This document shows positions 30,169 through 46,819 of a stretch of DNA of 64,000 bases, one piece after another (the stretch's first letter is position 1; every line of letters starts with the position of its first letter). The position numbers were made by a program, and so were the translations under genes. The notes below the pieces were generated by a model. It searched no databases. It saw nothing but the letters and a program-made list of their open reading frames with translations, and was not told the origin of the DNA. The stretch comes from an uncultured Candidatus Saccharibacteria bacterium. GTDB taxonomy: Bacteria; Patescibacteriota; WWE3; 2-01-FULL-39-13. The DNA is taken from the NCBI GenBank assembly GCA_964370865.1, contig CAYJKF010000002.1, positions 84,719 through 148,718 of the forward strand, given 5' to 3'.

Positions 30169-30879
30169 TTACTGAATCTTTTCAAATGTAACGAAGACTT
30201 TCTTCTCCGTTTCATTACCTGCCTTATCAATTGCTTTGATGTTGATTTCATTACCGCCATCATCTAGAGAGACTTGAGCAGTAAATTCACCTTCTGAATT
30301 TAATATCGCTGATTGATCTTCAACCAATACATTTATACCTGGTTCAGTTTTTCCTGTAACAGCGTAAGTACGTTCGGTCGCTTTATAAGTTTCGCCAGAT
30401 TTTGGAGTTACTATTTCAAATTCAGGTGCTGTGATATCGCGGACTATGCTATAGGATTTAGAGTCATTGCTCTTATTTCCACTATTATCTTCGGCAATAA
30501 CCTTAATATTTGATATAGCATACCCTATTGGGATGTCTGAGAAACTGAAGCCACCCTCATTATCTGTTATTGTTTCCGATTGTTTTGCATTATCAATATA
30601 CAGTATGATTTTGATACCTGGTTCCGATTTTCCATATATTGTAGTCTTATCATCTTTTGTAGCCTCTGGAATGGGTTCTAGATATGGTGAAACTGGTGCA
30701 ATATTGTCTTTTACTTCATATATGTCTTTGTTTCGGAATAAATCCCAAAACGAATTAACACTTGCTAGAAAGAACACCATCCAAAGATAGGTAAATATTA
30801 CAATTCCGAGGGAGCCTAAGTTTAAAAGTAATATTCTTTTAATTAGATATTTTTTTACGTTTTTCTTTTTATTTATCAT
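30169..30879 (-). CDS. Membrane-anchored surface protein with bacterial Ig-like repeats
   Basis: N-terminal TM helix, then two repeated modules (…GKSEPGIKI… and …GKTEPGINV…) with beta-sandwich-like composition. Start moved to MINKKK because the ORF-track start overlaps tRNA-Thr. Confidence 0.45.
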   Translation of the reverse strand: MINKKKNVKKYLIKRILLLNLGSLGIVIFTYLWMVFFLASVNSFWDLFRNKDIYEVKDNIAPVSPYLEPIPEATKDDKTTIYGKSEPGIKIILYIDNAKQSETITDNEGGFSFSDIPIGYAISNIKVIAEDNSGNKSNDSKSYSIVRDITAPEFEIVTPKSGETYKATERTYAVTGKTEPGINVLVEDQSAILNSEGEFTAQVSLDDGGNEINIKAIDKAGNETEKKVFVTFEKIQ

Positions 30880-30885
30880 AAATAA

Positions 30886-30961
30886 TGGAGCCACCCGGCG
30901 GAATTGAACCGTCAACCTACGGTTTACGATACCGTTGCTCTACCAATTGAGCTAGGGTGGC
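30886..30961 (-). tRNA. tRNA-Thr (anticodon CGT), CCA encoded
   Basis: Reverse complement folds as acceptor GCCACCC/GGGTGGC. D-arm GCTC-AATTGGT-AGAGC. Anticodon stem ACGGT/ACCGT with loop ATCGTAA. T-arm GACGG-TTCAATT-CCGCC. Discriminator U. Confidence 0.85.
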
Positions 30962-31033: not shown

Positions 31034-31768
31034 ATGCCCAAAAAACTAGTCAAACAAGAACAACTAACACAAGCAAATTTAAAGAGTTTACAGGAAACTT
31101 TTATAGCGATTACCTCACATAAATTTCTTTCACCTATTACTGTTATTAAGTGGAATCTTGAACTATTAATGGAATCAAGCAGTGCATTATCTGAGAAGGA
31201 CAAAGAAAAACTTTTAGATATCAAAAATAATGTGCAGCGTTTAGATGATATTACTAAATTATTGCTTCGTATTTATGAAGTTGCAACTAGTCCAAGTGTT
31301 GGATCATTTAAAAATTATTCTCCAGGACTAATAGTAGATCAGATTTTGCAGGAGTATTCACTTCTAATAAAACAAAACCGACTTACCATCATCAATAATG
31401 TTAAAAACGAAGATTCGTACCACTTGCCAGGCTCTGAATACTTTATGAGAGAAATTTTAAGATCTGTTATAGATAATGCAGTTAACTACAACGTGAAAGA
31501 AGGCAAAATACAAATCGACCTAACCTCAAGTGCTAAGGCTGTCAAAATTTCTCTCCAGGATACTGGAATTGGAATTCCTGAAAAAGATCAAAATCTAATT
31601 TTTAATCCGTTTTATCGTGCTTCAAATGTCATGAAAATGTCATTCAATGGAAATGGTTTGGGGTTATATATGTCGAAAATGGGTTTAAATTTAGTTGGCG
31701 GGGATATTCGTTTTTCCTCCAACCCTGGTGTTGGGTCGAAATTCGAGTTGGTTTTTCCAATATTATAG
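31034..31768 (+). CDS. Sensor histidine kinase, soluble: HisKA + HATPase_c only, with no TM or sensor domain
   Basis: H-box ITSHKFLSPIT. N, G1 and G2 boxes (DNAVNYN, QDTGIGIP, GNGLGLYM). Confidence 0.8.
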   Translation: MPKKLVKQEQLTQANLKSLQETFIAITSHKFLSPITVIKWNLELLMESSSALSEKDKEKLLDIKNNVQRLDDITKLLLRIYEVATSPSVGSFKNYSPGLIVDQILQEYSLLIKQNRLTIINNVKNEDSYHLPGSEYFMREILRSVIDNAVNYNVKEGKIQIDLTSSAKAVKISLQDTGIGIPEKDQNLIFNPFYRASNVMKMSFNGNGLGLYMSKMGLNLVGGDIRFSSNPGVGSKFELVFPIL

Positions 31769-31781
31769 TTCTCAACAACAT

Positions 31782-32180
31782 ATGGGTGAATTACGCAAAG
31801 TAAAAAGAATCTTAATAGTGGATGATAATGAGTTCTTCGCTAAAGTTATTAAAAGTGAATTACTAAATCATGGTTATGAAGTCGATATCGTATATAACGG
31901 TGAACAAGCAATAGATTTTTTAAAACATACTAAAGTAGATTTAATCTTGCTGGATATAATTATGCCAATCAAGGATGGTTTCGAGACTATGGAAGAAATA
32001 AAGAAAAATGAACTCACAAAAGATATTAGTGTAGTTTTCTTTTCAAATTTAGGGCAGGCTGAAGATATTCAGAAAGCAATGGATCTTGGGGCACAATCAT
32101 ATATTGTAAAAAAAGATTTTTCTCTGAAAGAGGTGATGAATAATATAGAAATGCATATCAGAAAATCCGATAGCTTGTAA
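31782..32180 (+). CDS. Response regulator, stand-alone receiver domain (CheY-like)
   Basis: ILIVDDNEFF...DLILLDIIMP...K conserved Asp/Lys positions. No output domain. The ORF-track start (31695) overlaps the kinase, so MGELRK was used. Confidence 0.8.
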   Translation: MGELRKVKRILIVDDNEFFAKVIKSELLNHGYEVDIVYNGEQAIDFLKHTKVDLILLDIIMPIKDGFETMEEIKKNELTKDISVVFFSNLGQAEDIQKAMDLGAQSYIVKKDFSLKEVMNNIEMHIRKSDSL

Positions 32181-32246: not shown

Positions 32247-32720
32247 ATGTTTACTCCTGATAATAGAAAGAAAAAAGGATTCACGTTAATTGAGTTATTA
32301 GTTGTCATTGCTATTATTGCTACCTTGGCAGTTGTTGCTTTTGTAGCCTTAGATCCTGTAAGAAGAATTCGAGATGCTCAAAATGCTACTCGAAGGACTG
32401 ATGTGGAAAATATCTCACAGGCTATTGCTTTACAAACAATAGATGATGCTGGAGTTTTACCAGTAGGACTTGTGGCTGATGGTTTGACATACCAGATAGG
32501 AACCTGCGCAGCGGGTGCAGATACACTTTGTCCAGGTGCACAAGCCGCTTGTGTAGACTTGTCAACAGTATTAGCCCAGAAGCTTAACCCAATCCCAACA
32601 GATCCGGATTCAGGTACGGCAGCTACAACAGGATATTCGGTATCGGTTGATGCTAACAATATCGTAACTGTAACCTCATGTGGTGCAGAAGGTGTAGATC
32701 CAATCTATACATCTAAGTAA
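32247..32720 (+). CDS. pilA: Type IV pilin (major pilin candidate) with class III signal peptide
   Basis: Prepilin leader/cleavage site KKKGFTLIELLVVIAIIATLAVVAF. Four Cys in the C-terminal region. Followed by a strong intrinsic terminator. Confidence 0.85.
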   Translation: MFTPDNRKKKGFTLIELLVVIAIIATLAVVAFVALDPVRRIRDAQNATRRTDVENISQAIALQTIDDAGVLPVGLVADGLTYQIGTCAAGADTLCPGAQAACVDLSTVLAQKLNPIPTDPDSGTAATTGYSVSVDANNIVTVTSCGAEGVDPIYTSK

Positions 32721-32828: not shown

Positions 32829-34520
32829 ATGCAAATTACTGATGAAATTCTAAAAACGATTTTGTTGGATACCCAATTGATATCCGATAAACAATTTGAA
32901 TTAGCTATTAAGAGTGCTAAGGCTCAAGGCACGACTCTTTACCATTATTTTGTTGATTCCAACACAATAAAAGATACTGATTTAGGTCAGTTAATCGCAA
33001 ATCACTTCAAACTTCCATACATTGATTTAAGCCGAGTGGCAATTCCAGATAACGTGTTGAGAATAATTCCCGAAGATACGGCGCGAAAGAGAAAATTTAT
33101 AAGCTTTTTAGACGAAAAGGATATTTTACATGTTGCAACTCCGAGTCCGGAGGATGTAGAGATGATAAGTTTTCTTGAAAAAAAAATAAATAAAAAAATT
33201 CTAGTACATTACACAACTGATAGAAATATTAAAGATACTCTAAATAGCTATGCAAAGAATGTAACTTTGGCTTTCGAAGATATCCTTGCTGAAAATATAA
33301 AACAAATAAAAAATTCTTTTACCGGAACATCCGAGCCACCAATTATTAAAATCGTAGATACTATTATTGAATATGCGTTCAAAAATAAAGCTTCGGATGT
33401 ACATCTTGAGCCCGTAGATACGTATTCATTACTTAGATTTAGAGTTGATGGTTTGTTAAAGGATATTGTTAAATTGCCAAAAGAGTTACATGATCGCTTA
33501 GTCACAAGAATAAAAGTTATGAGTGACTTAAGAACTGACGTTAGGCAGGCTCCACAAGATGGAAAAATCCACATTAAATTAAGTGAGGAGACCTTAAATC
33601 TTAGGGTTTCAATTGTTCCTGTTCTTGGTGGTGAAAAAGTTGTACTTAGAGTCCTAGCGGAAAAAAATAAAGGACTTGGTTTGGTTGAATTAGGTTTTAG
33701 AGATGAATCGTTAAAGAGAATCGAAGAATCATATAGAAAACCCTACGGAATGATTTTAACCACAGGTCCGACTGGTTCTGGAAAAACAACAACCCTATAT
33801 GCAATTCTGAAAGAAATCAATACTCGTGAAATTAATATTATGACAATCGAAAATCCTGTTGAGTATGAAATTGAAGGGATAAGCCAAATTCAAGTAAACC
33901 CAAAAGCAGGATTAACCTTTGCTACTGGACTTAGATCAATTGTTAGACAAGATCCAGATGTAGTACTAGTTGGAGAAATAAGAGATGAGGAAACCGCCAA
34001 AATTGCTATAAATGCCGCTATGACCGGGCATCTCGTTCTATCGACTTTACATACAAATGATGCCGCAACAACCATTCCTAGACTATTTGATATGGGAATT
34101 GAGCCTTTTCTTGTTGCTTCCTCTACGAATGTAATAGTTGGGCAAAGACTTGTGAGAAAAATTTGTGAACAATGTAGAGTTACTGAAGTTCATGATAGAA
34201 AAAATTGGGAAGAATCCACTCAATTATTTCCAAAAGAAATGATTAAGAAAGTCTTTGGAGATAAAAATGAAATACATACGTACGTGGGAAAGGGTTGTGA
34301 TATTTGTAACCATTCTGGCTATAAGGGTAGAGTCGGAATCTATGAAGTCATGTACGTAAGTGAGGAAATTAGGAGGGCAATAGTAAGTAAAGAAAACGCA
34401 GCGACGATTGCTGAAATTGCAAAAAAAGAGGGAATGATAACGATGTTTGAAGACGGTCTTGAAAAGGTAAAAATGGGAACTACAACACTTGCAGAGGTAA
34501 TTCGTGGAACGAAAGAATAA
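32829..34520 (+). CDS. pilB: Type IV pilus assembly ATPase PilB (GspE family)
   Basis: N-terminal GSPII_E_N-like domain. Walker A LTTGPTGSGKTTT. Asp box and Walker B. His box. Tetracysteine motif CEQC...CDIC. 563 aa. Confidence 0.9.
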   Translation: MQITDEILKTILLDTQLISDKQFELAIKSAKAQGTTLYHYFVDSNTIKDTDLGQLIANHFKLPYIDLSRVAIPDNVLRIIPEDTARKRKFISFLDEKDILHVATPSPEDVEMISFLEKKINKKILVHYTTDRNIKDTLNSYAKNVTLAFEDILAENIKQIKNSFTGTSEPPIIKIVDTIIEYAFKNKASDVHLEPVDTYSLLRFRVDGLLKDIVKLPKELHDRLVTRIKVMSDLRTDVRQAPQDGKIHIKLSEETLNLRVSIVPVLGGEKVVLRVLAEKNKGLGLVELGFRDESLKRIEESYRKPYGMILTTGPTGSGKTTTLYAILKEINTREINIMTIENPVEYEIEGISQIQVNPKAGLTFATGLRSIVRQDPDVVLVGEIRDEETAKIAINAAMTGHLVLSTLHTNDAATTIPRLFDMGIEPFLVASSTNVIVGQRLVRKICEQCRVTEVHDRKNWEESTQLFPKEMIKKVFGDKNEIHTYVGKGCDICNHSGYKGRVGIYEVMYVSEEIRRAIVSKENAATIAEIAKKEGMITMFEDGLEKVKMGTTTLAEVIRGTKE

Positions 34521-34521
34521 A

Positions 34522-35574
34522 ATGATTTTGCTTAAACGGGTATCCTTTTTAGATAAGCTAATGTTTACAAAACATTTAGCGATAATGATTAAATCCGGTG
34601 TTCCAATATTTGAGGCTATAGAATCTTTGGCAGCTAATAGCGAGAGTGAGTATTTCAAATTTGTATTAAAAGATGTTTTAGTTGGTATTGAAAACGGTAA
34701 GTCCTTATGTGATGCGTTTAAAAAATATCCGAAAATATTCGATGATTTTTATACAAGCTTGATAAAAGTTAGCGAGGATTCTGGAACTTTAGAAGAGACT
34801 TTAGAATTTTTAAGCGAGCAGCTCGCCAAAGACTACGCACTACGAAAAAAAATCCAGGGAGCTATGTTTTACCCAGCGATAATTATGGTCACCGGAGTTG
34901 GAATAGCGGGTTTCATTTCTCTTTTTATCTTGCCCCAATTAGTAGGGTTTTTCACATCTCTTGATATAGAATTGCCTCTTCCAACAAAAATCTTATTATT
35001 CATCGCGAACATAATGAAGGACCACGGTGTTTTGATATTTGGCGGAGGCGCAATATTTTTTATCTTCTTAAGATGGTTCTTTAATACAAAATATTTTAAA
35101 CCGGTATGGCATAAAATATTATTACGCATTCCAATTTTTGGCAAATTACTAAAATATGGTCAGTTGGCTCGTTTTAGTCGCAATTTAGCTACTTTGGTAA
35201 AGAGTGGTGTTCCAATTGCGGAGGGATTAAGGACTGCTTCAAACACAATGTCCAATGTTGTTTATAGAAATTACTTACTAATAGTTAGGGAGGATTTGAT
35301 TAAAGGAAAAAGTATTAGTGTTTCACTTGAAGCAAGAAAATTTTCTGAAATTCCTGCAATGTTAACTAAAATGATTGGTGTTGGTGAAAAAACAGGTAAT
35401 CTCGAAGAAGTTCTATTGTATTTAAGCGAATTCTATGAAGAAGAAGTTGACGATATGGCGAAAAATTTAACCACTATGCTTGAGCCAATTCTATTGGTGG
35501 GAATTGGTGGGATGGTAGCATTCATAGCATTAGCAATTATTGGACCAATTTACAAAGTTACCAGTAGTTTTTAA
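34522..35574 (+). CDS. pilC: Type IV pilus platform protein PilC (GspF family)
   Basis: Two repeated GspF domains and three TM segments. Start ambiguous: 34504 or 34522. Confidence 0.85.
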   Translation: MILLKRVSFLDKLMFTKHLAIMIKSGVPIFEAIESLAANSESEYFKFVLKDVLVGIENGKSLCDAFKKYPKIFDDFYTSLIKVSEDSGTLEETLEFLSEQLAKDYALRKKIQGAMFYPAIIMVTGVGIAGFISLFILPQLVGFFTSLDIELPLPTKILLFIANIMKDHGVLIFGGGAIFFIFLRWFFNTKYFKPVWHKILLRIPIFGKLLKYGQLARFSRNLATLVKSGVPIAEGLRTASNTMSNVVYRNYLLIVREDLIKGKSISVSLEARKFSEIPAMLTKMIGVGEKTGNLEEVLLYLSEFYEEEVDDMAKNLTTMLEPILLVGIGGMVAFIALAIIGPIYKVTSSF

Positions 35575-36018
35575 ATGAAATCTATAACAAATAGAATATA
35601 TAAAGCATTTTCTTATAATGAACTGTTGCTAAGTGTCACGATTATAGCAATCCTCTCTGCTATGGCAGGACCTTATTTATTGAATTCCTTAACGTCAAAT
35701 CAAGTGGAACAGACATCTCGAATCATAATTTCGCTACTTAGATCATCTCAACAGTATTCAATTGATAGGATTGAAAATGCCAACTGGGGAGTTTGTATGG
35801 TTGATGGTGAGATTATGCAGTATAAAAACTCATGTACTTCAGAAAATATACAGAAAACTTATATACCAGAGCCAAATATATCAATTAACGGATTAAACAA
35901 TGTTTTCTTCGAAAGTTATACGGGTGAACTGTCTTCTACTATAAGTATTTCCATAACAGATGGAATCGAGAGTCGATTAATTGAAATTAATGAGATCGGA
36001 GGATATGAAATCAATTAA
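35575..36018 (+). CDS. Pseudopilin / minor pilin-like protein (degenerate prepilin N-terminus)
   Basis: N-terminus KAFSYNELLLSVTIIAILSAMA resembles a class III signal peptide and has Glu+5, but has Ala instead of Gly at the cleavage site. Confidence 0.5.
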   Translation: MKSITNRIYKAFSYNELLLSVTIIAILSAMAGPYLLNSLTSNQVEQTSRIIISLLRSSQQYSIDRIENANWGVCMVDGEIMQYKNSCTSENIQKTYIPEPNISINGLNNVFFESYTGELSSTISISITDGIESRLIEINEIGGYEIN

Positions 36019-37783
36019 GAAAGCTTTTTCACTTGTAGAGTTGTTAGTAGCTCTTGGCGTTTTCACAATTGTGATATCTAGCGGTGCTGGATTTATCACT
36101 TCCAGTTACAAACTTACGACTATGAGTGAACAAAACACTAAAGCCAGACAATTGGTAAATGAAGGGTTAGAGGTTACTAAATATTTGAAAAGGAAAAGTT
36201 GGGACAGTTTAGTTAACGGACAGTGGGGAATTAATTATAATAATCAGTCACTAGACTGGGAATACATTCCTAACCTAGACATTACAGATAGTAAATATTC
36301 GCGAGTAGTTACTATCTCAGATATTTATCGGGAAGAAGATGGAACAATCGTTACAAATAGCCCAACAAGCGCATTGGATTTATTTTCGAAAAAAGTTAGT
36401 GTAACTGTTACTTGGGATAATGCAAATAATAACGATCGTACAATAACTCAATCATTTCTAATTACGAATTGGGAAAGGGAAGTTCCTGGAGGTGGTTCTG
36501 GCATGTTGGTTTATGCAGATTATTCTGGTTCAGATGATATTATACGGTACAGATTTTTATATGAGGATGGTACTTGGTCGGCCCAGTATACTATTCCAGA
36601 CGCAGGAGTGCCCGCTAATCGAGATACTCGGCGTATTGAGCTCTATGCATCAGATACAAGGGATGAATATGTTCTTATGTCAAAACATACCGAGGATGGT
36701 CAATTTATATTTGCTCACGTTTGGGATGGTTCTCGTTGGATAGAACCAATACAGTTGGTTGGGTATGGTGATAACACTAATCCGAATACAAGAAATTTTA
36801 GTGGTACTTACTTAGAGGATGGAAGATTTTTAGCGGTCTTTGATGATTTTACATTCACACCAAAATATAGAATTTGGAATGGTACAAGTTGGGGTTCAGA
36901 AGGATCTATTGGGAACTTGGGTTTTCTAAGCTACCCAGTCTGGATGGAAGTGGAGGCTAGACCAGGTAGTAATAGGGCTATTTTTGTTGTAAGAGATTGG
37001 TTACAGAAAACAACAACTTATGTTTGGGATGGTTCAAGCTGGGGAAGCCGTGTTACTCATGGTAGTTCATCAACTGGTTCATCAATTGAAAACATTTCAC
37101 TCCAGTGGAATCGATTTTCTGGTTCAAGATTAGCGTTAATGTTTAATGAAGCCAACGATAATAATCCAAATATTAAAATATGGAATGACTCAACAAACAG
37201 CTGGAGTAGTAATGTGGAAAATGTAGCCTTACCAGGTTATGCACGTATTTTTGAAATTAGTGATAATCCACAGAGGGATCAGTTTGTAGGGTGTGCGAAA
37301 GATTCTGTTCGCGGAATTAGTTGCCTTACAACTACGTATACTCCATCTTGGACAAATGCAACACAAATTGCTACCCGTACTCACGGGAATGCTGAGAGAA
37401 GCTTTAGTGTAGGATACGAAAATAGTGGAGATGACGCTCTCGTAGTTTACAGTAACGGACCAACCGATGCGGATTTGAGAGAACCGAAATTTAGAACCTT
37501 TAATGCGAGTAGTTTGAGTTGGTCAGGTGAGCAAAAAATAGATGAACTAGGGCCGACTTCTTCATATGCTCTTACTACGACTAGGGTTTTGCCATCACAT
37601 AATTCCAATGACGTTATGGTAGTAATGGGGGATCAATCTAAAAGGATTCATACCATAGTTTGGGATGGTGATAATAATCAATTTTATGATTCAGTCGGGC
37701 TTCAACTTACTAAACAAGGTGATTTTGGGTCATATAATGAAGATTTTTGGTATGCATTTTCTTGGAGGGAATATGAAGAATAA
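36005..37783 (+). CDS. Large pilin-like protein (~592 aa) with a C-terminal predicted 7-bladed beta-propeller. Candidate pilus-tip adhesin.
   Basis: Prepilin-like N-terminus KKAFSLVELLVALGVFTIV. Seven spaced repeats of the form (aromatic)x(V/I)W(D/N)GxxW: YEDGTWS, VWDGSRW, IWNGTSWG, VWDGSSWG, IWNDSTNSW, SLSWSG, VWDGDNN. Each repeat is preceded by a short hydrophobic strand. Confidence 0.6.
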   Translation: MKSIKKAFSLVELLVALGVFTIVISSGAGFITSSYKLTTMSEQNTKARQLVNEGLEVTKYLKRKSWDSLVNGQWGINYNNQSLDWEYIPNLDITDSKYSRVVTISDIYREEDGTIVTNSPTSALDLFSKKVSVTVTWDNANNNDRTITQSFLITNWEREVPGGGSGMLVYADYSGSDDIIRYRFLYEDGTWSAQYTIPDAGVPANRDTRRIELYASDTRDEYVLMSKHTEDGQFIFAHVWDGSRWIEPIQLVGYGDNTNPNTRNFSGTYLEDGRFLAVFDDFTFTPKYRIWNGTSWGSEGSIGNLGFLSYPVWMEVEARPGSNRAIFVVRDWLQKTTTYVWDGSSWGSRVTHGSSSTGSSIENISLQWNRFSGSRLALMFNEANDNNPNIKIWNDSTNSWSSNVENVALPGYARIFEISDNPQRDQFVGCAKDSVRGISCLTTTYTPSWTNATQIATRTHGNAERSFSVGYENSGDDALVVYSNGPTDADLREPKFRTFNASSLSWSGEQKIDELGPTSSYALTTTRVLPSHNSNDVMVVMGDQSKRIHTIVWDGDNNQFYDSVGLQLTKQGDFGSYNEDFWYAFSWREYEE

Positions 37784-38279
37784 AAAAGGAATGACATTAG
37801 TTGAAGTAGTCCTTTATGTTGCCATTTTGGTCATGTTTATGACTGCCCTCATGTCGTATGTATTTATGATTATGAATGGTCGTGCAAAATCTAAGGTACA
37901 AGAAGAGGTTCAGGATAATTTAGAATTAGTAATTAACAAATTAGAGTATGAACTCAAGAATGCCTCAGCAGTGTCTTCCACTTCCAATTCACTGTCTATC
38001 ACGAGTAGTCAGCTAGCTAGAGGTAATTCAATTTATAGAGTCGAGGCAGAAGCTGTTTTATTTGGAGTTGGAGATTCTGGTTCATGCAGTGTAGCTAGTC
38101 CTTGTTTCCTAACTAGCAATTTAGTTCAAGTTACAAATTTTGAAGTGACTCAAACGACAAGTACTGATGCGAACTCTATTATTCATTTCGAGATTACAAT
38201 TCAATATAAAGATAATAATAATGAAAAGTTAAGATATAGCGAAACGCAAAGTGGGTCAGTTTACATTAGAACAACATGA
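37773..38279 (+). CDS. Pseudopilin / minor pilin
   Basis: MKNKKGMTLVEVVLYVAILVMFM class III signal peptide with Gly at -1 and Glu+5. Start moved from the ORF-track 37665 to this Met. Confidence 0.6.
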   Translation: MKNKKGMTLVEVVLYVAILVMFMTALMSYVFMIMNGRAKSKVQEEVQDNLELVINKLEYELKNASAVSSTSNSLSITSSQLARGNSIYRVEAEAVLFGVGDSGSCSVASPCFLTSNLVQVTNFEVTQTTSTDANSIIHFEITIQYKDNNNEKLRYSETQSGSVYIRTT

Positions 38280-38656
38280 ATAATACAAATTTAAATGGCT
38301 ATATTGCCTTAGTTTCTGTATTGATTCTTTCAGCAGTGATTATGTCAATTTTAGTAACAGTTTCAATTACCTCAGCTTATAGAATTAACGGAATTCTAAA
38401 TGAACAAGGCGTAAATAATATTAAATTAGTAGCGGAGTCTTGCGCAGATGATGTTCTGTTAAAATTAAATCACGATAATCTACTTCCGAGTACCGTGACA
38501 GTGGATGGTGTTACGTGCAACGTCGTTCAAAATAGTCAGTTAGGTACTTTATGGGATTTTGATATCAGTGTAAGTTTATCTCAAATGGTCCACACAATAA
38601 ATATTGTTGCTGACAGAACTGATAAAATATACATTATAAGTTGGAATAATAAATAA
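38276..38656 (+). CDS. Pseudopilin-like small membrane protein (PilX-like?)
   Basis: N-terminus NGYIALVSVLILSAVIMSIL is a hydrophobic pilin-like helix. Start overlaps the previous stop by 4 nt. Confidence 0.45.
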   Translation: MNNTNLNGYIALVSVLILSAVIMSILVTVSITSAYRINGILNEQGVNNIKLVAESCADDVLLKLNHDNLLPSTVTVDGVTCNVVQNSQLGTLWDFDISVSLSQMVHTINIVADRTDKIYIISWNNK

Positions 38657-40116
38657 TGAACCACAATTTGCTATTAATAACAAAAGATAAGATTTATTTG
38701 TATTCACATACTGATAATAAAATTTTAAATATTCAGGAACCGGTGATGTGGGTTGAGTCAAATTTAGAGCAAGTAATTGCTCAATTATTGGCTAAATTTA
38801 AATCTAAGAATTGGGGTGTGCTTTTAAATAATGACTTGAATTACGTTATTTCTTTTACTATAGATAAACCTCAAAAACCTAACGAAGAAAAGAGTTTAAT
38901 TAGGCAGAAAGTTATTGAAAAGATACCAGAATATTCTGACAAACTAGTTTGGGACTATAAAATTTTGAGAGATAAAGGTTTTTCTACAGTTCAAATTGCG
39001 GCCTCAGAAAAGTCTCTTATCGAACATATTTACCGAGCTTTTGAGATTTCCAAGATTTCCAAGATGGCTCTTTCATTCATTGAGCCTATGTCTTATTTCC
39101 TTGCACAAGGGGTATCAAAACAAGATAAATATTACGTAATTTTGTATACGTCTCCACTTGAATCAATTATTGCTCTCGCAAATAACGGTTTCATTAGTAT
39201 GGTCACTACTTTAAATAATGAAGATTTAGAGTCACAACTTAATAAATTTTTCGAATTCATTAAGATAAAGATTCCAATGTCATTCCCAATTGAGATGTTA
39301 GTTTCTGATAATAATAATGTGCTTACTGAGCAACTTGTATCAGTACTAGAGAAATCCAATGCCAAAATTACAGCTTTAGATTTGACGCCATTTTTATTCA
39401 AGGATTATGCTGAAATCAAAAGCCGGAACGACGAAGCTAAACTAAATTTAAATAATGATAACAGTTTTGTTGCCGAGGTTGCTCAACAGAGAAATGAGTC
39501 ACCACAAGATTCTCAAAAACCATCAAAGCATAAGAAATGGATTTCCATAATTGCAATTGTAACGATGTTTTTAGTTATGGCTGGAGCATTAACTTATTAT
39601 TTTACAAAAGATGAGGAAACGGAAGAGAACGTTACTGACGTTAAATTAGTTTCGCCAACACCCACACCGGCATCAGAAGTTTTAAACGAAAGCGAAATTG
39701 ACGAAAAAGAGCAAGAGACAATTGATAGTAAGGTTGTCGAAAGGCCAAAAGCACTTGAGAACTTTAAAGGATATAGACTGGAGATTTTAAATGGGTCAGG
39801 AATTCCCGGGGAAGCAGATAAAATGAGAGATCTAGTTGTACCTTTACAATTTGATAGGGTTAATGTAGGTAATGCAGATAAATTTGATTATTTGGACACG
39901 ACAATTCAATTTAGATCTGAAGAAGTTAAACTTGGACAGGATTTATTGCAAGACTTACTGGACAATTATTCTGTAGTTGTTTCTGAGGAATATTTGCCTG
40001 CTTCATCGATTTATGATGTGCAAATTCTAATAGGATCGACGAGGAATCCACAGACATCATCAATAAAGGGGGATTCAGAAAGTCTTAATGGTGGAGTACA
40101 GGGAATCGAGCCATAG
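38656..40116 (+). CDS. Pilus assembly protein: PilM-like cytoplasmic N-domain, TM helix, and C-terminal LytR_C domain
   Basis: Central TM helix WISIIAIVTMFLVMAGALTYYF. C-terminus YRLEILNGSGIPGEADKMRDLVVPLQFDRVNVGNADKFDYLDTTIQF matches the LytR_C pattern (V.V.NGsg..G.A......L...Gf.v..vgna......t.I.y). The N-terminal 290 aa has weak PilM-like character. Confidence 0.45.
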   Translation: MNHNLLLITKDKIYLYSHTDNKILNIQEPVMWVESNLEQVIAQLLAKFKSKNWGVLLNNDLNYVISFTIDKPQKPNEEKSLIRQKVIEKIPEYSDKLVWDYKILRDKGFSTVQIAASEKSLIEHIYRAFEISKISKMALSFIEPMSYFLAQGVSKQDKYYVILYTSPLESIIALANNGFISMVTTLNNEDLESQLNKFFEFIKIKIPMSFPIEMLVSDNNNVLTEQLVSVLEKSNAKITALDLTPFLFKDYAEIKSRNDEAKLNLNNDNSFVAEVAQQRNESPQDSQKPSKHKKWISIIAIVTMFLVMAGALTYYFTKDEETEENVTDVKLVSPTPTPASEVLNESEIDEKEQETIDSKVVERPKALENFKGYRLEILNGSGIPGEADKMRDLVVPLQFDRVNVGNADKFDYLDTTIQFRSEEVKLGQDLLQDLLDNYSVVVSEEYLPASSIYDVQILIGSTRNPQTSSIKGDSESLNGGVQGIEP

Positions 40117-40228: not shown

Positions 40229-40861
40229 TTATGGTAGTTGAAGATTAGTTCCAGGTATTATAAGTGGATTACCGTTTTGCAAATATCCAACTTTATTAAT
40301 ATCAGCTATTTTTTTCCATTGCTTTCCTTCGCCGTATTTTCCTTCTGAAATTTCCCAAAGTGTATCGCCTCTTATTACTAAGTGAGTGTTACCAGTTATG
40401 TCTCCTGGATTATAATTAACTGCTACCCAAACACCTGGTGCGACTTTCACATTTTTAGTTAGGTTTGAATCAGTTGATGTGCTAACTATTCCACTGGGCT
40501 TATTTGTTGTTGGAGTAGGAGTTGCAATATTTCCACCTTTTTGACTTCCAACATTATTACCTCCAGCAAAACCAAGTACTTTATCGGACACAGGTTGATT
40601 GACATTTGGTGTTGCCAAAGTAGGAGCTTTACTTGGGGTTGGCAACGAATCGTCTAATGCCACATCTTGAGAAGACTCTGATGGTTCGCCAGTTTCCACT
40701 GTTGCTAAAGGAATTTCATTATTATCTCCAGCTTCTTTGAAGTATCGATACATAAAAACAATAATCGTACTGACAATGAGAAGGCCAATTACCAAAAAGA
40801 TGATAGCAACTTTGCCTGTATGTTTACTTTCGTTTACGGTTGTATTTATTTCATCTGCCAT
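40229..40861 (-). CDS. LysM domain peptidoglycan-binding membrane protein
   Basis: N-terminal TM helix, a Pro/Thr/Ser-rich linker, and a C-terminal LysM domain (GDTLWEISEGKYGEGKQWKKIADINKV...IIPGTNLQLP). Confidence 0.75.
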   Translation of the reverse strand: MADEINTTVNESKHTGKVAIIFLVIGLLIVSTIIVFMYRYFKEAGDNNEIPLATVETGEPSESSQDVALDDSLPTPSKAPTLATPNVNQPVSDKVLGFAGGNNVGSQKGGNIATPTPTTNKPSGIVSTSTDSNLTKNVKVAPGVWVAVNYNPGDITGNTHLVIRGDTLWEISEGKYGEGKQWKKIADINKVGYLQNGNPLIIPGTNLQLP

Positions 40862-40934
40862 ATTTATATTTTCTGGGCAGGGAAATTATTAGTGAGTGTA
40901 TTATAGGATATAAACCTCACAGACTCAACTTGTG

Positions 40935-41351
40935 CTAGAAAACCGTATTTTGAAGTTCAGAGTCAGCTGAGTCAAAATCAAGCTTATCAAGAGACTCATT
41001 CATCGAATCGGTGCTTTCATCTAGAGAATCAGTACTTCCATCAATTTCCATAATTAAGGAGTCAGAATCCAATTCGTTTTCTTCAACTGGGGTTGGAGTT
41101 ACTACTGGAGTAGCCTCTGCTGTTGGTGTTGGTACTATTGCTTCCTCATTCGTAGCTATCTTATCGTTTGGAAGCATTTCTAAAAAATAATATAGAGCTC
41201 CTGCAATTAGCAATAGAAATACTATTCCGACCGCAACGTATAAAGGTAATTTACTCCTACCTTTTTCAGGTGTTTCGGTCAGGTTTGTGTTAGAAGTTTG
41301 GTTAATTTGAGTTGTATCTGGTTGGGGTTGAATCGTTTGTATATTTTCCAT
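40935..41351 (-). CDS. Hypothetical membrane protein with an acidic Asp/Ser-rich C-terminus
   Basis: One TM helix (LPLYVAVGIVFLLLIAGALYYF). The C-terminus is rich in D/E/S. No homology signal. Confidence 0.4.
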   Translation of the reverse strand: MENIQTIQPQPDTTQINQTSNTNLTETPEKGRSKLPLYVAVGIVFLLLIAGALYYFLEMLPNDKIATNEEAIVPTPTAEATPVVTPTPVEENELDSDSLIMEIDGSTDSLDESTDSMNESLDKLDFDSADSELQNTVF

Positions 41352-41354
41352 TGA

Positions 41355-41957
41355 TTATTCTAAACTAGAAATTACTTCTCTTAAATCCGTTTTTATTGTT
41401 TTCAATCGACTAATTATACTTCTAGTATCTTCTTTTATTTCCGTTAACTTTGCTTTAATTTCCTCAACTTCTAATTCCTCAATGTTTTCATATTTTACTG
41501 TAAGTTCAGAAATTTCTACTTCTAATTGGTCAATTTCTGTTTGAATTGCAACAAGCTTAGCTGTTGCTACATCGTTTTCGAAGCCACTATCTACGATTCT
41601 TTTTTGAATTCGCTCTACTATTTCAGTTAACTTTTCTGTTACCTTCAATAGTCTTGCTTGTGATTTAGCGGTATGTTCTTTGATAAGTGAAAGTCTTGCC
41701 TGCTGTTGATCAGAGAATTTTCCTTTGAGATTTTCTACTCTTAACTCAGTTCTTTCTTTGAATGCCTTTCGAAATTCCTCGTATTTTTCCATCCTTTGAG
41801 GAGTGGTTTCAGGTTGTCGTTCCAGCCTTTCACGACCGGGGTCAACTTGTAACTGATTCTGTACACCATTTGGGACTTCCCGTTGGGCTATTGAATTAGC
41901 TGGGAAACATAGTAAGGCAAGTGAAATCAAAAAAAGAGGTATATATATACTTTTCAT
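41355..41957 (-). CDS. Secreted coiled-coil protein, hypothetical
   Basis: N-terminal signal peptide (MKSIYIPLFLISLALLCFPANSIA). The remainder is a charged heptad-like coiled-coil. Confidence 0.4.
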   Translation of the reverse strand: MKSIYIPLFLISLALLCFPANSIAQREVPNGVQNQLQVDPGRERLERQPETTPQRMEKYEEFRKAFKERTELRVENLKGKFSDQQQARLSLIKEHTAKSQARLLKVTEKLTEIVERIQKRIVDSGFENDVATAKLVAIQTEIDQLEVEISELTVKYENIEELEVEEIKAKLTEIKEDTRSIISRLKTIKTDLREVISSLE

Positions 41958-43851: not shown

Positions 43852-44362
43852 CCACCAGAAAAATGATTTTATAAAGAAGGCCGCATTTATTGCCGACAAA
43901 TCATCATGTTTATATAAAGTTGGTTGTGTTGGTGTTATTGAAGATGTTGGACAGACTATTCCATCAAGCGCTCTAAAAGATTTATCATATAGAAAAAAGG
44001 ACGGTTTTATATATCTTAAAAGTTGGAATGAAACTTTACATGGCGAAATTTTTTGCCAAGAATGTGATGACAAAGGAAATAAAGTTTGTATCCGGCAAGT
44101 TGAAAATTTAAAAGGTAGAGATTTCCAGAAAGTATGTTCAATTCATGCTGAATCCAACTTAATAGCTAAATTCGCAAGATATGGAATTTCTACAGAAGGG
44201 ATGGTTTTGTTTATAACAAATACGCCGTGTTATGTATGCGCAAAAAATCTAATTCAAGCTGGGGTTTCTAAGGTTTATTATCTAGCTGAGCATACTGACA
44301 CAACAGGAATGGATATACTTAGGACAAACGGAATAATTTCAGAGAAAATTTCATTTAACTAG
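43838..44362 (+). CDS. dCMP (deoxycytidylate) deaminase, ComEB-like
   Basis: Zinc-binding deaminase motifs HAESNLIAKFA and PCYVCAKNLIQAG. dCMP-deaminase-type insertion carrying extra Cys/His (CQECDDKGNKVC). Confidence 0.75.
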   Translation: MKLNNHQKNDFIKKAAFIADKSSCLYKVGCVGVIEDVGQTIPSSALKDLSYRKKDGFIYLKSWNETLHGEIFCQECDDKGNKVCIRQVENLKGRDFQKVCSIHAESNLIAKFARYGISTEGMVLFITNTPCYVCAKNLIQAGVSKVYYLAEHTDTTGMDILRTNGIISEKISFN

Positions 44363-46114
44363 AGTTTGATACAAGCCTGTGGTTTTAAAGCCATTCTTTT
44401 TATAATATTCTCTCGTTCCAACTGAAGATATTACTGCAAGTTTTTGAAAATTATTTTCTTTTGAAATCTCTAAGGACTTTGCAATTAATGTCTTTCCCAA
44501 ACCTAAATGTTGGGTTTTAGCCTTTTCACCTATATTTAGGCTTTCTCCATAAATGTGAATTTCACGAATAATCGCGGCTCCATCCAATTCCTCGATAAAA
44601 TGTGGTGAATCCAGATTAGGCAAAGATAAACGTAAAAATCCTGCAATTTGATTTTCGTTTGTAACAAATTCCAAGAACTTTTCAGAAGAGACAGATGTTT
44701 CATATTCCAAAATTTTTAATTTAAGATCTCCTAATTCGACTTTTTTACCGCGAATTTCTCTATATCTGATTTCCTGTATATCAGCTTTTTGATTTTTGAT
44801 ATTTATTTCAACTGTTTGACGTAGATTAGTTTTTTTATTTCCAACTACAATATCTTGAGATCCAATATCCCTAATCATTCGAGTAATCCTGCAGTATGCT
44901 GGTGTTAATTTATAAGCTTCCTCTAGAACGTGAGTTAGTTCTTCATAAGTATATGGTTTCCATAAACCTTTTTTATAATATTGCATTAACTCTGCGCTAG
45001 CGATTAGTGAACATGGATAAATTTTTATTTCATCGGGCCTAAATTTAGGATCACTAAAGACTTTCTTGTAATCCTCAATATCTTTTTGTGGTGTTGAACC
45101 ATATAAGTTTGGCATCCAGTGCGCGTGAATTTTAAATCCTGCTTTCCTTAATATCGCGACTGCATTTGCAGTAACAGAAGAATCATGTCCTCTCTTATTA
45201 AGCATCAAGACTTTATCATTCAAGCTTTGAAAACCAATTTGTACCTTTGTAGCTCCAAGTTTTCGAATACGAATAACTTCGGTTTCTGTTATTTCATCTG
45301 GTCTTGTCTCTATAACAAGTCCAATACAGCGAGTTTCTGCTAATTCATTCTGTGAGTGAACCGTAAATAATTCGTCCCATGTTGCATGTTCGGTTTCAGA
45401 TTGTGGTTTTTTTGGAAGTATCGCCATCGAAACGATTTGATTATAAGTTTTATTAAACTGTGTTCCATCAATTTCTTCTAATAACTTATCTTCGAATGGA
45501 ATCTCCATTTTCGTTTCAACAGGAGTTGGCAACGTAAAAGTATCGAAATCATTCATAGCATCGAAGCATCTTTTAACAAACCATATCTGATAAGGTTCGG
45601 GGTATGAGGTCCAGGTTCCACCAAGAATAATTAATTCAATTTTATCTGTTGAATGGCCAAGTGCTTTATATGCAACTAGCCTGTTAAAAGTTTGTGCATA
45701 CGGGTCGAATTTATTTCTAGTCGCTCTTTGTGCTCCAGGTTCATCTGATAAATAGCTTTTTGGCATTCGAACATCATTTGGACAAAAAATACATTTTCCA
45801 GGACATGGAAATGGCTTGGTAAGTACGGTAACTGGAGTTACTCCTGAGATAGATCTTACTTCTTTGGATTTCAAATTTTGTCTCAAAGTTTTAAGTTCGG
45901 TAGGAGTAAGGGTTATTTCATCAGTCTTCAAAAATTCAATTAGTGATACTGTTAGATCGCTTTTTTTGAAAATTCCTTTATCTCCCTTTGGAAACTGCCT
46001 AAATGCTGTCTGAATGTCTTTATCATCAGCCTTTTCCATTTTAGCCAGCTTGTAGATTAGCGGTATTGTCTGATTTTTATTCTTATTTATGTCAAAATGA
46101 TAGCTATTATTCAT
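44351..46114 (-). CDS. elp3: Elp3-like tRNA wobble-uridine modification enzyme (radical SAM + GNAT acetyltransferase domains)
   Basis: RSISGVTPVTVLTKPFPCPGKCIFCPN reproduces the Elp3 radical-SAM signature (R.ISG...V.V..KP..CP....C.YCP). C-terminal GNAT motif GLGKTLIAKSLEISKENNFQKLAVISSVGTREYYKKNGF. 587 aa. The start may be the internal Met at 46039. Confidence 0.8.
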   Translation of the reverse strand: MNNSYHFDINKNKNQTIPLIYKLAKMEKADDKDIQTAFRQFPKGDKGIFKKSDLTVSLIEFLKTDEITLTPTELKTLRQNLKSKEVRSISGVTPVTVLTKPFPCPGKCIFCPNDVRMPKSYLSDEPGAQRATRNKFDPYAQTFNRLVAYKALGHSTDKIELIILGGTWTSYPEPYQIWFVKRCFDAMNDFDTFTLPTPVETKMEIPFEDKLLEEIDGTQFNKTYNQIVSMAILPKKPQSETEHATWDELFTVHSQNELAETRCIGLVIETRPDEITETEVIRIRKLGATKVQIGFQSLNDKVLMLNKRGHDSSVTANAVAILRKAGFKIHAHWMPNLYGSTPQKDIEDYKKVFSDPKFRPDEIKIYPCSLIASAELMQYYKKGLWKPYTYEELTHVLEEAYKLTPAYCRITRMIRDIGSQDIVVGNKKTNLRQTVEINIKNQKADIQEIRYREIRGKKVELGDLKLKILEYETSVSSEKFLEFVTNENQIAGFLRLSLPNLDSPHFIEELDGAAIIREIHIYGESLNIGEKAKTQHLGLGKTLIAKSLEISKENNFQKLAVISSVGTREYYKKNGFKTTGLYQTLVK

Positions 46115-46819
46115 ATGAATGCCGAAACGATAGACTCCATTATAAGGTTAAACAACAACTTCTACAAAAAGGTTGCTCAAAGTTTTTCGAATACAAGACA
46201 ACATCCTTGGGATGGATGGAAACGTGTTCTGACTTATATTGAGGAAAATCACGTACAAACTATACTAGATTTTGCATGCGGAAACGGTCGTTTTCTGGAT
46301 TACCTAATTTCTCAAAATATTGAACCTAAATATACTGGGGTGGATTCAAATGAGGACTTGCTAGGCATTGCAGAGAAACATCATCAAAGACACCGATTCT
46401 TTAATCGTGATTTGTTAAATGAAGGATTACCCGGTCGAGAGAAATATGACATGATTGTTTCTTTTGGATTTATGCATCATGTTCCAACGGAGGAAATTCG
46501 AGAGCAGGTTATTTCCAAACTTTTTGATTTACTTAATGAGAAGGGAATTTTAATTCTAACTTTCTGGAGTAATCCAAATCGAAGAGGAATAATTCCACTT
46601 GATAAATTAACAGGCGAAGCTCTTAGGTTAAATAGTGAAATGGGTGAGAATGATTTCTTTTTTGGATGGGAAGGAGATTATGAAACACCGAGGTTTTGTC
46701 ACTTATTCGATGAAGAAGAAGTGATAAAACTCTTAGATAAATATAAACAATTTGAATTATTTAAATCCGATGGACGTACCTCGCAAGATAACATATATGC
46801 TGTATTATTTAATAGATGA
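46097..46819 (+). CDS. trm9: Trm9-like SAM-dependent methyltransferase (tRNA carboxymethyluridine methyltransferase family)
   Basis: FYKKVAQSFSNTRQHPWDGW and ILDFACGNGRFL match yeast Trm9 (VHKVYNEIAPHFSQTRYKPWP and GIDVGCGNGKYL). VSFGFMHHVPTEEIREQVISKLFDLLNEKGILILTFWS matches Trm9 ISIAVVHHWSTRERRVEVIRHVLSKLRQGGQALIYCWA. The start could be the Met at 46115. Confidence 0.7.
   Translation: MIAIIHMNAETIDSIIRLNNNFYKKVAQSFSNTRQHPWDGWKRVLTYIEENHVQTILDFACGNGRFLDYLISQNIEPKYTGVDSNEDLLGIAEKHHQRHRFFNRDLLNEGLPGREKYDMIVSFGFMHHVPTEEIREQVISKLFDLLNEKGILILTFWSNPNRRGIIPLDKLTGEALRLNSEMGENDFFFGWEGDYETPRFCHLFDEEEVIKLLDKYKQFELFKSDGRTSQDNIYAVLFNR

Follow-up and report, generated by a model that had tools for sequence, protein, structure and literature searches.

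A pilin-type protein of Patescibacteria carrying a predicted eight-bladed propeller of a large unannotated domain family

How ultrasmall Patescibacteria find and hold their hosts is largely unknown, and type IV pili are the main suspects. We analysed one gene (36005..37783) in a 64,000-nucleotide stretch of DNA from an uncultured bacterium of this group (contig CAYJKF010000002.1; the whole stretch is called the window below), which encodes a pilin-type protein with a large C-terminal propeller. Sets of four minor pilins form a complex that primes pilus assembly and ends at the tip of the filament, and bulky modular pilins are accommodated in this tip complex. To our knowledge, genetic work on a propeller-bearing pilin has been limited to PilX2 of Nanosynbacter lyticus TM7x, whose propeller appears to be of a different family from the one analysed here. 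PilX2 is a minor pilin of the thin T4P-2 pilus of this Saccharibacteria strain; it was described as 'heptabladed ... with RCC1 repeats' and PLL-lectin-like, without a predicted PilD signal (PMC11623550). Deletion of pilX2 lowered host binding from about 10.6% to 4.6%, and this binding was inhibited by rhamnose (PMC11623550).

Modular pilins are better known from Streptococcus sanguinis, where PilB (with a vWA module) binds proteins and PilC (with a ConA-like lectin module) binds glycans (PMC8179133, PMC9934059). Such pilins bind host proteins and glycans and have been modelled at the pilus tip; these papers also bear on the priming and tip complex of minor pilins and on the accommodation of modular pilins in it (PMC8179133, PMC9934059). 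A survey by Raynaud et al. in 2021, which relied on database signatures, listed more than 1,200 modular pilins in 264 architectures (PMC8179133).

Pilin module and propeller architecture

The sequence-only reading had described the gene as encoding a 600-aa pilin-like protein with a class III (prepilin) signal and a propeller of seven blades. The end of the plus-strand open reading frame (ORF) at 37783 and the ATG at 36005 stand, but the product is 592 amino acids (aa) long, since the figure of 600 aa counts from a TTG at 35981, where the mechanically called ORF begins. We take ATG 36005 as the likely true start because GGAGG lies 2 nt upstream of it and homologues share the same short basic leader; the product begins MKSIKKAFSLVELLVALGVFTIV... 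The 5' end of the gene shares 14 nt with the upstream pilin gene (35575..36018), and the ATG of the next pilin gene (37773) sits within its 3' end, giving an 11-nt overlap. Such overlaps on both sides are typical of a translationally coupled operon.

The N-terminus reads MKSIKKA↓FSLVELLVALGVFTIVISSGAGF (the arrow marks the predicted cut). Residues 5-25 match Pfam N_methyl (PF07963; 21.6 bits, cut-off 21.2); the score for TIGR02532 is 16.6, with a cut-off of 16.3. The doubt left by these marginal scores is removed by the conservation of the motif across the family. A word search gave about 33 full-length homologues, and the prepilin motif was found in at least 82 cluster representatives of the pilin-propeller family: [G/A/S]↓[F/I/L]xxxE followed by a hydrophobic stretch is present in 82 of the 91 representatives of full-length size. 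Of these 82 sequences, 59 have Gly at position -1, 12 have Ala and 8 have Ser. The class III signal and N-helix were thus read correctly, with the reservation that the cleavage site has Ala at -1 and not the canonical Gly, a minority variant that also occurs in minor pilin 1 of the same operon (KA↓FSYNE). The sequence does not show a plain signal anchor lacking a prepilin peptidase site, as a predicted site is present and kept in the family. E12 (Glu+5 of the mature protein) is nearly invariant in the alignment of homologues, and R100 and W137 of the pilin head are invariant in all 31 of them.

An AlphaFold2 model of the full-length protein, calculated from 31 homologues (mean predicted local distance difference test score, pLDDT, 90), showed a 55-residue helix (residues 10-64) followed by an antiparallel sheet (72-154; pLDDT 75-93), so the N-terminal module is predicted to adopt the lollipop fold of pilins. 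A class III motif, this predicted fold and adjacent genes for PilB, PilC, a major pilin and three further minor pilins are the features expected of a type IV pilin. The protein is also modular, in that a pilin module (residues 1-155) and a linker (156-165) precede a propeller (166-592) that is not specific to type IV pili. Its assignment as a pilin-type protein and modular minor type IV pilin is well supported.

The C-terminal region is predicted to form an all-beta propeller, in agreement with the earlier expectation, and the top Foldseek matches in the PDB are all propellers. The blade count, the ring closure and the face occupied by conserved residues were derived from sequence, DSSP strings and HHalign. 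The x-[WYF]-[DN]-G-x-x-W repeats are far beyond chance, with HHalign E-values between blade sub-alignments down to 1.8e-13. The repeats reported before are therefore real, but they number eight instead of seven: copies of the motif x-[WYF]-[DN]-G-x-x-[WF] terminate in W191, W245, W296, W346, W400, W449, W506 and F560 with a spacing of 49-57 residues, two of the repeats being degenerate (YEDGTW and TYTPSW) and the last ending in Phe. The repeat Trp residues are invariant in the 31 homologues (27-62% identity). In the DSSP assignment on the model, residues 166 to 587 form eight four-stranded sets, and motif spacing, DSSP and HHalign all point to eight blades and not to a seven-bladed propeller.

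Profile-profile comparison separated two alternating blade types. Blades 1, 3, 5 and 7 match one another with 89-98% probability (E-values down to 1.8e-13) and blades 2, 4 and 8 with 94-96%, while blade 6 matches blades 4 and 8 only, and more weakly (54-69%). Because of this alternation, the propeller is predicted to consist of four tandem two-blade units of about 104 residues, (AB)x4. A composite of blade 1 and the C-terminal strand aligned with blade 7 over 47 columns (E = 2.6e-10) and placed YAFSWRE on the innermost strand, as would be expected of a single ring with the usual velcro closure by the C-terminal strand on blade 1. Modelled alone, residues 160-592 reached a pLDDT of 91.6 and a predicted template modelling score (pTM) of 0.92, which indicates one rigid domain in the model. 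The only two cysteines of the protein, C430 (nt 37292-37294) and C440 (37322-37324), are invariant and probably form a disulfide; at least two Cys lie within the propeller in 31 of the 31 aligned members.

Domain family, synteny and conservation

Searches with the propeller revealed no described family. Pfam gave no match at E<=1 over the C-terminal 430 residues, and NCBIfam gave no meaningful match to the propeller. Neither did a search of PDB sequences with the whole family or the propeller alone, and no PLL or PHL lectin chain was found at E<=10 with the profile. Hidden Markov model scans for the PQQ, WD40 and Kelch-like propellers, which had been suggested as possible relatives, detected none at E<=1 in the target (Pfam) and none at E<=0.1 in 31 homologues. 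RCC1 was rejected at the same thresholds, and PilY1/Neisseria_PilC gave no Pfam match at E<=1. The BNR/sialidase family, whose propellers have six blades and a catalytic Arg triad, was rejected as well: there is no Pfam match, the W-[DN]-G-x-x-W motif is spaced unlike the Asp-box SxDxGxTW, and template modelling (TM) scores are 0.3-0.46. DUF2510 (PF10708), which contains a 35-residue motif with (R/K)YWDGxxW, was detected at E<=0.1 in 14 of the 31 homologues (best E 9.4e-6) and not in the target. The match spans just the C-D hairpin of single blades (e.g. residues 340-353 of P0020), and the resemblance appears to be a shared hairpin motif and not domain-family membership.

Structural comparison by Foldseek returned the Photorhabdus PLL/PHL lectins as best matches, with TMq 0.56-0.58, TMt 0.68-0.71, a root-mean-square deviation of about 5 Å and 12-14% identity. 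For cd1 nitrite reductase, the eight-bladed d1 domain gave a TMq of 0.57 over 453 columns; sialidases and fungal fucose lectins scored lower, and thiocyanate dehydrogenase was also returned.

An exhaustive profile search detected 13,985 proteins at E<=1e-3, of which 900 reach E<=1e-30; many of the proteins are not pilins. By these sequence comparisons, the predicted eight-bladed propeller belongs to a large domain family without a Pfam, NCBIfam or PDB-sequence match. The module is present without a pilin part in thousands of bacterial and archaeal proteins, and family members of 2,000-8,000 aa contain up to 26 matched stretches. Its domain partners include Laminin_G_3 lectin and Ig-like domains; one family protein carries six ConA-like lectin domains, and one pilin also carries LVIVD repeats. 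In a 1,964-aa protein of Methanolobus bombayensis (L043, 8001-9158) the propeller lies between two VWA domains and is accompanied by Big_1 and PA14. Proteins from Saccharibacteria bins (L042, L050 and L061; 965-1,851 aa) have ordinary signal peptides and two tandem propellers, with fn3 in L050. The propeller is an extracellular module that accompanies adhesion and glycan-binding domains and has been grafted onto a pilin in Patescibacteria. Its extracellular nature is indicated by the invariant Cys pair and by its occurrence in Sec-signal and giant surface proteins.

Three of the giant metagenome proteins, P0053 (6,719 aa), P0081 (7,926 aa) and P0082 (2,681 aa), contain 13-26 separate propeller-profile stretches.

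Comparison of related loci, down to 27% protein identity, showed a homologue directly downstream of PilC in 24 of 25 and of PilB in 22, with further minor pilins and the major pilin usually following it. The family is found in WWE3, Levy-, Davies-, Woese-, Berkel-, Falkow- and Komeilibacteria, Parcubacteria and Microgenomates. In many ultrasmall Patescibacteria (candidate phyla radiation, CPR) the gene is kept within the core pilus operon. ORFs of Gracilibacteria loci are broken under table 11, probably owing to an alternative genetic code. Saccharibacteria-labelled loci that match in the propeller only encode Sec-signal surface proteins and not pilins.

Four full-length pilin-propeller loci (L005, L018, L020 and L021) are labelled Vitreimonas, Gammaproteobacteria or Sulfotelmatobacter. 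One of them, L005, and a metagenome contig of the Joint Genome Institute (JGI; L001) appear to be one and the same contig, as the protein matches agree in relative position and in identity, and the contigs are 1,409,690 and 1,409,795 bp long. The non-Patescibacteria labels on these four loci are probably binning or annotation errors and not real occurrences outside the group.

Mean pairwise identity is 42% in the propeller, with 47-55% in blades 1-3, and 31-38% in the pilin module. From the predicted strand topology, 15 of 17 conserved polar residues are placed at strand ends that would form one face of a canonical propeller (D-A and B-C loops). Conserved residues include D178, D199, R209, H228, Q233, D266, D281, K287, R289, T336, H352, D385, K432, S466 and K495. 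The propeller is acidic throughout the family (median isoelectric point, pI, 4.71, range 4.05-6.11), with a net charge of about -20 in the target.

Proposed role and alternative explanations

We favour, with moderate confidence, the view that this protein is a modular minor pilin which displays its eight-bladed propeller, most likely at the pilus tip, and binds a ligand on the surface of another cell. A prepilin peptidase whose gene lies outside the window would remove the leader after Ala7, so that the mature protein starts with Phe1 and carries Glu5. The N-terminal helix and the small beta head could then assemble on the PilC platform together with the three small minor pilins as a priming complex, which, on the model of GspHIJK/FimU-PilVWX and of PilABC in S. 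sanguinis, would end at the tip. The short Gly-rich linker would display the 430-residue propeller outside the filament; a domain of this size on a 10-residue linker presumably cannot pack within the filament body. Exposed in this way, the propeller would most likely bind a ligand on a host or partner cell, a glycan being the best guess, and form the receptor-binding end of the pilus with which these ultrasmall bacteria attach.

Ligand binding appears to be the most economical function, given the domain partners of the propeller elsewhere, its lectin-like fold neighbours and the precedent of TM7x PilX2. A role as 'tip adhesin' is plausible by analogy with published modular pilins and PilX2. 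Within the tip complex the protein is probably not the topmost subunit, because it keeps Glu+5 whereas the downstream 126-aa pilin lacks it, like GspK-type caps. Among the possible functions we rank binding as most likely, ahead of a PilY1-like structural role and of an enzyme.

Several observations weigh against a tip-borne adhesin. The propeller resembles lectins in fold to a modest degree, and an eight-bladed enzyme, cd1 nitrite reductase, comes equally close. By sequence identity, the pilin carrier has diverged more than the propeller among lineages whose hosts presumably differ, which is unexpected of a host-specific adhesin. The conserved polar residues are blade-specific and do not recur blade by blade as in multivalent lectins; together with their placement on one face, this suggests a single conserved site that may bind a shared envelope component, be catalytic or serve in docking to minor pilins. 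The very top of the pilus is probably taken by another subunit, the Glu+5 of the target contrasting with its absence from the 126-aa pilin. The N_methyl score exceeds its cut-off by just 0.4 bits, with Ala rather than Gly at -1. Neither a prepilin peptidase (Peptidase_A24) nor a PilT retraction ATPase was detected in the scanned ORFs of the window; its first 30 kb, which hold housekeeping genes, were assessed by reading the translations. The cleavage, the entry into the pilus, the place at the tip and the ligand are all points that we infer.

A more far-reaching proposal, which we make tentatively and hold to be doubtful as a whole, is that the (AB)x4 propeller defines a new and very large extracellular recognition family (about 14,000 proteins) that became a fixed receptor-binding or envelope-processing head of the core pilus in many CPR lineages. 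One conserved site, on one face of the ring, would recognise a widely shared feature of the envelope, which would explain why the propeller is more conserved than its pilin carrier.

The same conservation, highest in blades 1-3, would also suit a structural role like that of PilY1/PilC in diderm type IVa pili, with the propeller docking on the other minor pilins, capping the filament and controlling assembly or retraction, here fused directly to a pilin. The fixed position in the core operon (24 of 25 loci, many lineages) and the blade-specific polar residues, which from strand topology lie mostly on one face and suggest one interaction surface, are consistent with it, and the PilY1 propeller has been described as a carrier module that docks on minor pilins (PMC8179133). 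We nevertheless consider this explanation unlikely. The Pfam search gave no PilY1/Neisseria_PilC match, PilY1 is outside the top 50 Foldseek matches, and thousands of surface proteins outside pili, which carry adhesion domains, contain this module too, which argues that it is not by origin a docking domain specific to pili. Filament extrusion in TM7x persisted after deletion of its propeller pilin (PMC11623550), although that propeller appears to be a different one.

It is less probable still that the propeller is an enzyme which the pilus tip brings to the host envelope, such as a glycosidase, a hydrolase of the sialidase type or some other enzyme with one site. Among the invariant or near-invariant residues, many Asp, Glu, His, Arg and Lys are blade-specific, which is the pattern of a single active site; the Foldseek matches include sialidases and seven- to eight-bladed enzymes (cd1 nitrite reductase, thiocyanate dehydrogenase), and modular pilins bearing peptidases are known (PMC8179133). 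Against this, Pfam and NCBIfam revealed no glycoside hydrolase, BNR/Asp-box, PQQ or other enzyme family, sialidases match poorly in structure (TM scores 0.3-0.46), a cofactor-binding motif is not apparent, and the domain partners in other proteins are adhesion and lectin modules and not catalytic ones.

A DNA receptor in a Com-like operon, with the propeller capturing extracellular DNA for uptake by a competence pilus, is very improbable. Patescibacteria show natural competence (PMC10633639), Thermus ComZ, a minor pilin with an extra module, is a proposed DNA binder (cited in PMC8179133), and N-termini in the operon match ComGD, ComGE and ComGF weakly in NCBIfam. These ComG-like scores, however, are far under the cut-offs and cover the generic N-terminal helix only, and TM7x mutants in pilins of the propeller pilus kept wild-type competence (PMC11623550). 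DNA capture, which had been offered before as one possible function, is further disfavoured by the strongly acidic character of the propeller throughout the family.

That the protein is no pilus subunit at all, its N-terminus being a mere signal anchor for a membrane-tethered surface propeller that lies among pilus genes by chance, is scarcely credible: the marginal N_methyl score, the Ala at -1 and the ordinary signal peptides of other propeller proteins would allow it, but [G/A/S]↓FxxxE in 82 of 91 representatives (59 with the canonical Gly), the nearly invariant Glu+5, a full pilin head between helix and propeller in the model, the overlap with both flanking pilin genes, the position kept in 24 of 25 loci and the same Ala at -1 in minor pilin 1 all argue against it.

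The family offers a concrete candidate for the part of the pilus that touches the host, one that is widely conserved and applies to many uncultivated lineages. The analysis provides a confident structural model with domain boundaries (residues 160-592) and draws attention to an unannotated family of about 14,000 proteins that recurs in giant surface proteins of bacteria and archaea. Its ligand, if identified, could help to predict host ranges from metagenomes.

Pilus operon and comparison with known systems

The features of the gene and of its operon are compiled in Table 1. The window has about 34% G+C and encodes housekeeping functions including a dcw cluster, FtsA/FtsZ, aminoacyl-tRNA synthetases (IleRS, GlyRS), DnaE and GatAB; the nearest relative of the target protein (89% identity) comes from a genome labelled 'Patescibacteria group bacterium'.

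Table 1. Positions in the window of the modular pilin gene, its parts and the other genes of the pilus operon (arrow, predicted cut)
Feature	Position	Strand	Basis
Whole gene, modular minor type IV pilin, 592 aa + stop	36005..37783	+	ORF, ATG with GGAGG, homologues
Leader peptide MKSIKKA, residues 1-7, predicted prepilin-peptidase cut after Ala7	36005..36025	+	Sequence
Alpha-1 helix of mature pilin, residues 8-64, FSLVE with Glu+5, then hydrophobic alpha-1N	36026..36196	+	N_methyl; model helix 10-64
Pilin head, antiparallel beta-sheet, residues 65-155	36197..36469	+	Model strands 72-79, 84-89, 92-94, 98-109, 123-138, 144-154
Short Gly-rich linker WEREVPGGGS, residues 156-165	36470..36499	+	Sequence; length and sequence vary across alignment (columns ~210-222)
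Blade 1, residues 166-203, type A, three strands, YEDGTW191	36500..36613	+	DSSP; HHalign vs blades 3, 5, 7: 89-97%
Blade 2, residues 204-261, type B, HVWDGSRW245	36614..36787	+	DSSP; HHalign vs blades 4, 8: 94-95%
Blade 3, residues 262-307, type A, YRIWNGTSW296, most conserved	36788..36925	+	DSSP, HHalign; mean pairwise identity 55%
Blade 4, residues 308-361, type B, YVWDGSSW346	36926..37087	+	DSSP, HHalign
Blade 5, residues 362-409, type A, IWNDSTNSW400	37088..37231	+	DSSP, HHalign
Blade 6, residues 410-463, type B, most diverged, TYTPSW449; Cys430 and Cys440	37232..37393	+	DSSP, HHalign
Blade 7, residues 464-519, type A, TFNASSLSW506	37394..37561	+	DSSP; HHalign vs blade 3 E = 1.8e-13
Blade 8, residues 520-578, type B, IVWDGDNNQF560	37562..37738	+	DSSP; HHalign vs blade 4 E = 1.3e-9
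C-terminal closing strand, residues 579-592, FWYAFSW, predicted innermost strand of blade 1	37739..37780	+	W582, F585, W587 invariant
Major pilin candidate, 157 aa, KKKG↓FTLIE	32247..32720	+	N_methyl E = 4.9e-10; kept in related loci
PilB-type assembly ATPase	32829..34520	+	T2SSE E = 7e-131 plus MshEN
PilC-type platform protein	34504..35574	+	T2SSF E = 2e-61
Minor pilin 1, 147 aa, YKA↓FSYNE	35575..36018	+	Weak ComGD-like match E = 8.5e-4, far under model cut-off; position kept in some related loci
Minor pilin 3, 168 aa, KKG↓MTLVE	37773..38279	+	Translation; sub-threshold N_methyl and ComGF-like matches
Minor pilin 4, 126 aa, NG↓YIALV, without Glu+5	38276..38656	+	Sequence; kept in synteny
Last operon gene, 486-aa membrane protein, C-terminal LytR_C	38656..40116	+	LytR_C E = 3e-6; kept in synteny

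The 126-aa minor pilin (38276-38656) has no family match in Pfam or NCBIfam; we take it to be a GspK/ComGG-like candidate for the tip-most subunit. The 486-aa protein encoded by the last gene has LytR_C (residues 373-461) as its sole Pfam match and a likely transmembrane segment at about residues 295-320; its counterpart in the related locus L001 is 447 aa long. It may be a component of the alignment complex, such as a PilM/N-like protein fused to LytR_C.

Directly upstream of the pilus operon (31034-32180) lie genes for a histidine kinase (HisKA and HATPase_c) and a stand-alone receiver-domain response regulator. Such a pair is found upstream of PilB in many homologous loci too, which suggests that two-component control of this pilus is conserved. 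Just upstream of these regulatory genes and adjoining a tRNA-Thr, the minus strand (30169-30915) encodes a membrane-anchored protein of 248 aa with a Big_6/Glucodextran_B Ig-like domain, a probable further surface protein. On the downstream side, three small minus-strand genes (40229-41957; 210, 138 and 200 aa) follow the operon directly, between tRNA-Gly and tRNA-Asp; their products have signal-anchor-like or signal-peptide N-termini and low-complexity or coiled regions, and none has a Pfam match. Two multidomain proteins are encoded further downstream. A minus-strand gene at 44351-46114 encodes a radical SAM protein with a C-terminal GNAT acetyltransferase domain (just under the Pfam cut-off) in an Elp3-like architecture, in what is probably a Patescibacteria genome, and the 515-aa fusion product of 46816-48363 has an MtrA-like region at its N-terminus, a thymidylate synthase domain, and PterinBD-DUF4346 at its C-terminus.

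Among published proteins, TM7x PilX2 comes closest. Both are minor pilins of Patescibacteria, encoded among other minor pilins, with a large C-terminal propeller that resembles PLL-type lectins, and PilX2 has been proposed as an adhesin. As published, PilX2 has seven blades with RCC1 repeats, which sets it apart from the predicted eight-bladed (AB)x4 propeller without an RCC1 match. It also lacks a predicted PilD signal peptide, whereas the target has a recognisable prepilin motif, and it is encoded in a separate pilin-only locus, in contrast to an operon that also encodes PilB and PilC.

PilB and PilC of S. sanguinis share with the target a small pilin module, a short linker and a bulky module that also exists outside pili, in a pilus of the monoderm type. 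They have been modelled as part of a minor-pilin complex at the tip, and the folds of their modules differ from the eight-bladed propeller. None of the Pfam/InterPro architectures that the main text of PMC8179133 quotes by name is the propeller architecture; lacking a database signature, the module makes the protein invisible to a signature-based survey of modular pilins. The 'K' minor pseudopilins of the GspK/PilX type are, like the target, the largest of a four-member minor-pilin set and carry an extra domain, and K is located at the filament tip. In GspK this domain is alpha-helical and inserted in the pilin fold, and Glu+5 is absent; in the target the extra domain is a propeller at the C-terminus, and Glu+5 is kept.

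A propeller tied to the pilus tip complex, with roles in adhesion and pilus priming, is also known from PilY1/PilC (IPR008707) of Pseudomonas, Neisseria and Myxococcus. PilY1 is, however, not a pilin; its modified seven-bladed C-terminal propeller is a docking module and its variable adhesive part is N-terminal, whereas the propeller of the target is fused to a pilin. The comparison with PilY1-like adhesins that had been proposed earlier thus places the target outside the PilY1 type, in line with the Pfam and Foldseek results and with its being itself a pilin. The PLL/PHL lectins of Photorhabdus, which bind fucose, rhamnose and O-methyl sugars, are the best structural match and have similarly Trp-rich blades of about 50 residues; they are soluble, seven-bladed and multivalent with sites repeated between blades, as opposed to eight blades with blade-specific polar residues in the target. 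The concept of a propeller-bearing minor pilin in Patescibacteria has thus been published before, and the protein described here is a modular minor pilin whose propeller comes from an unannotated and very large domain family.

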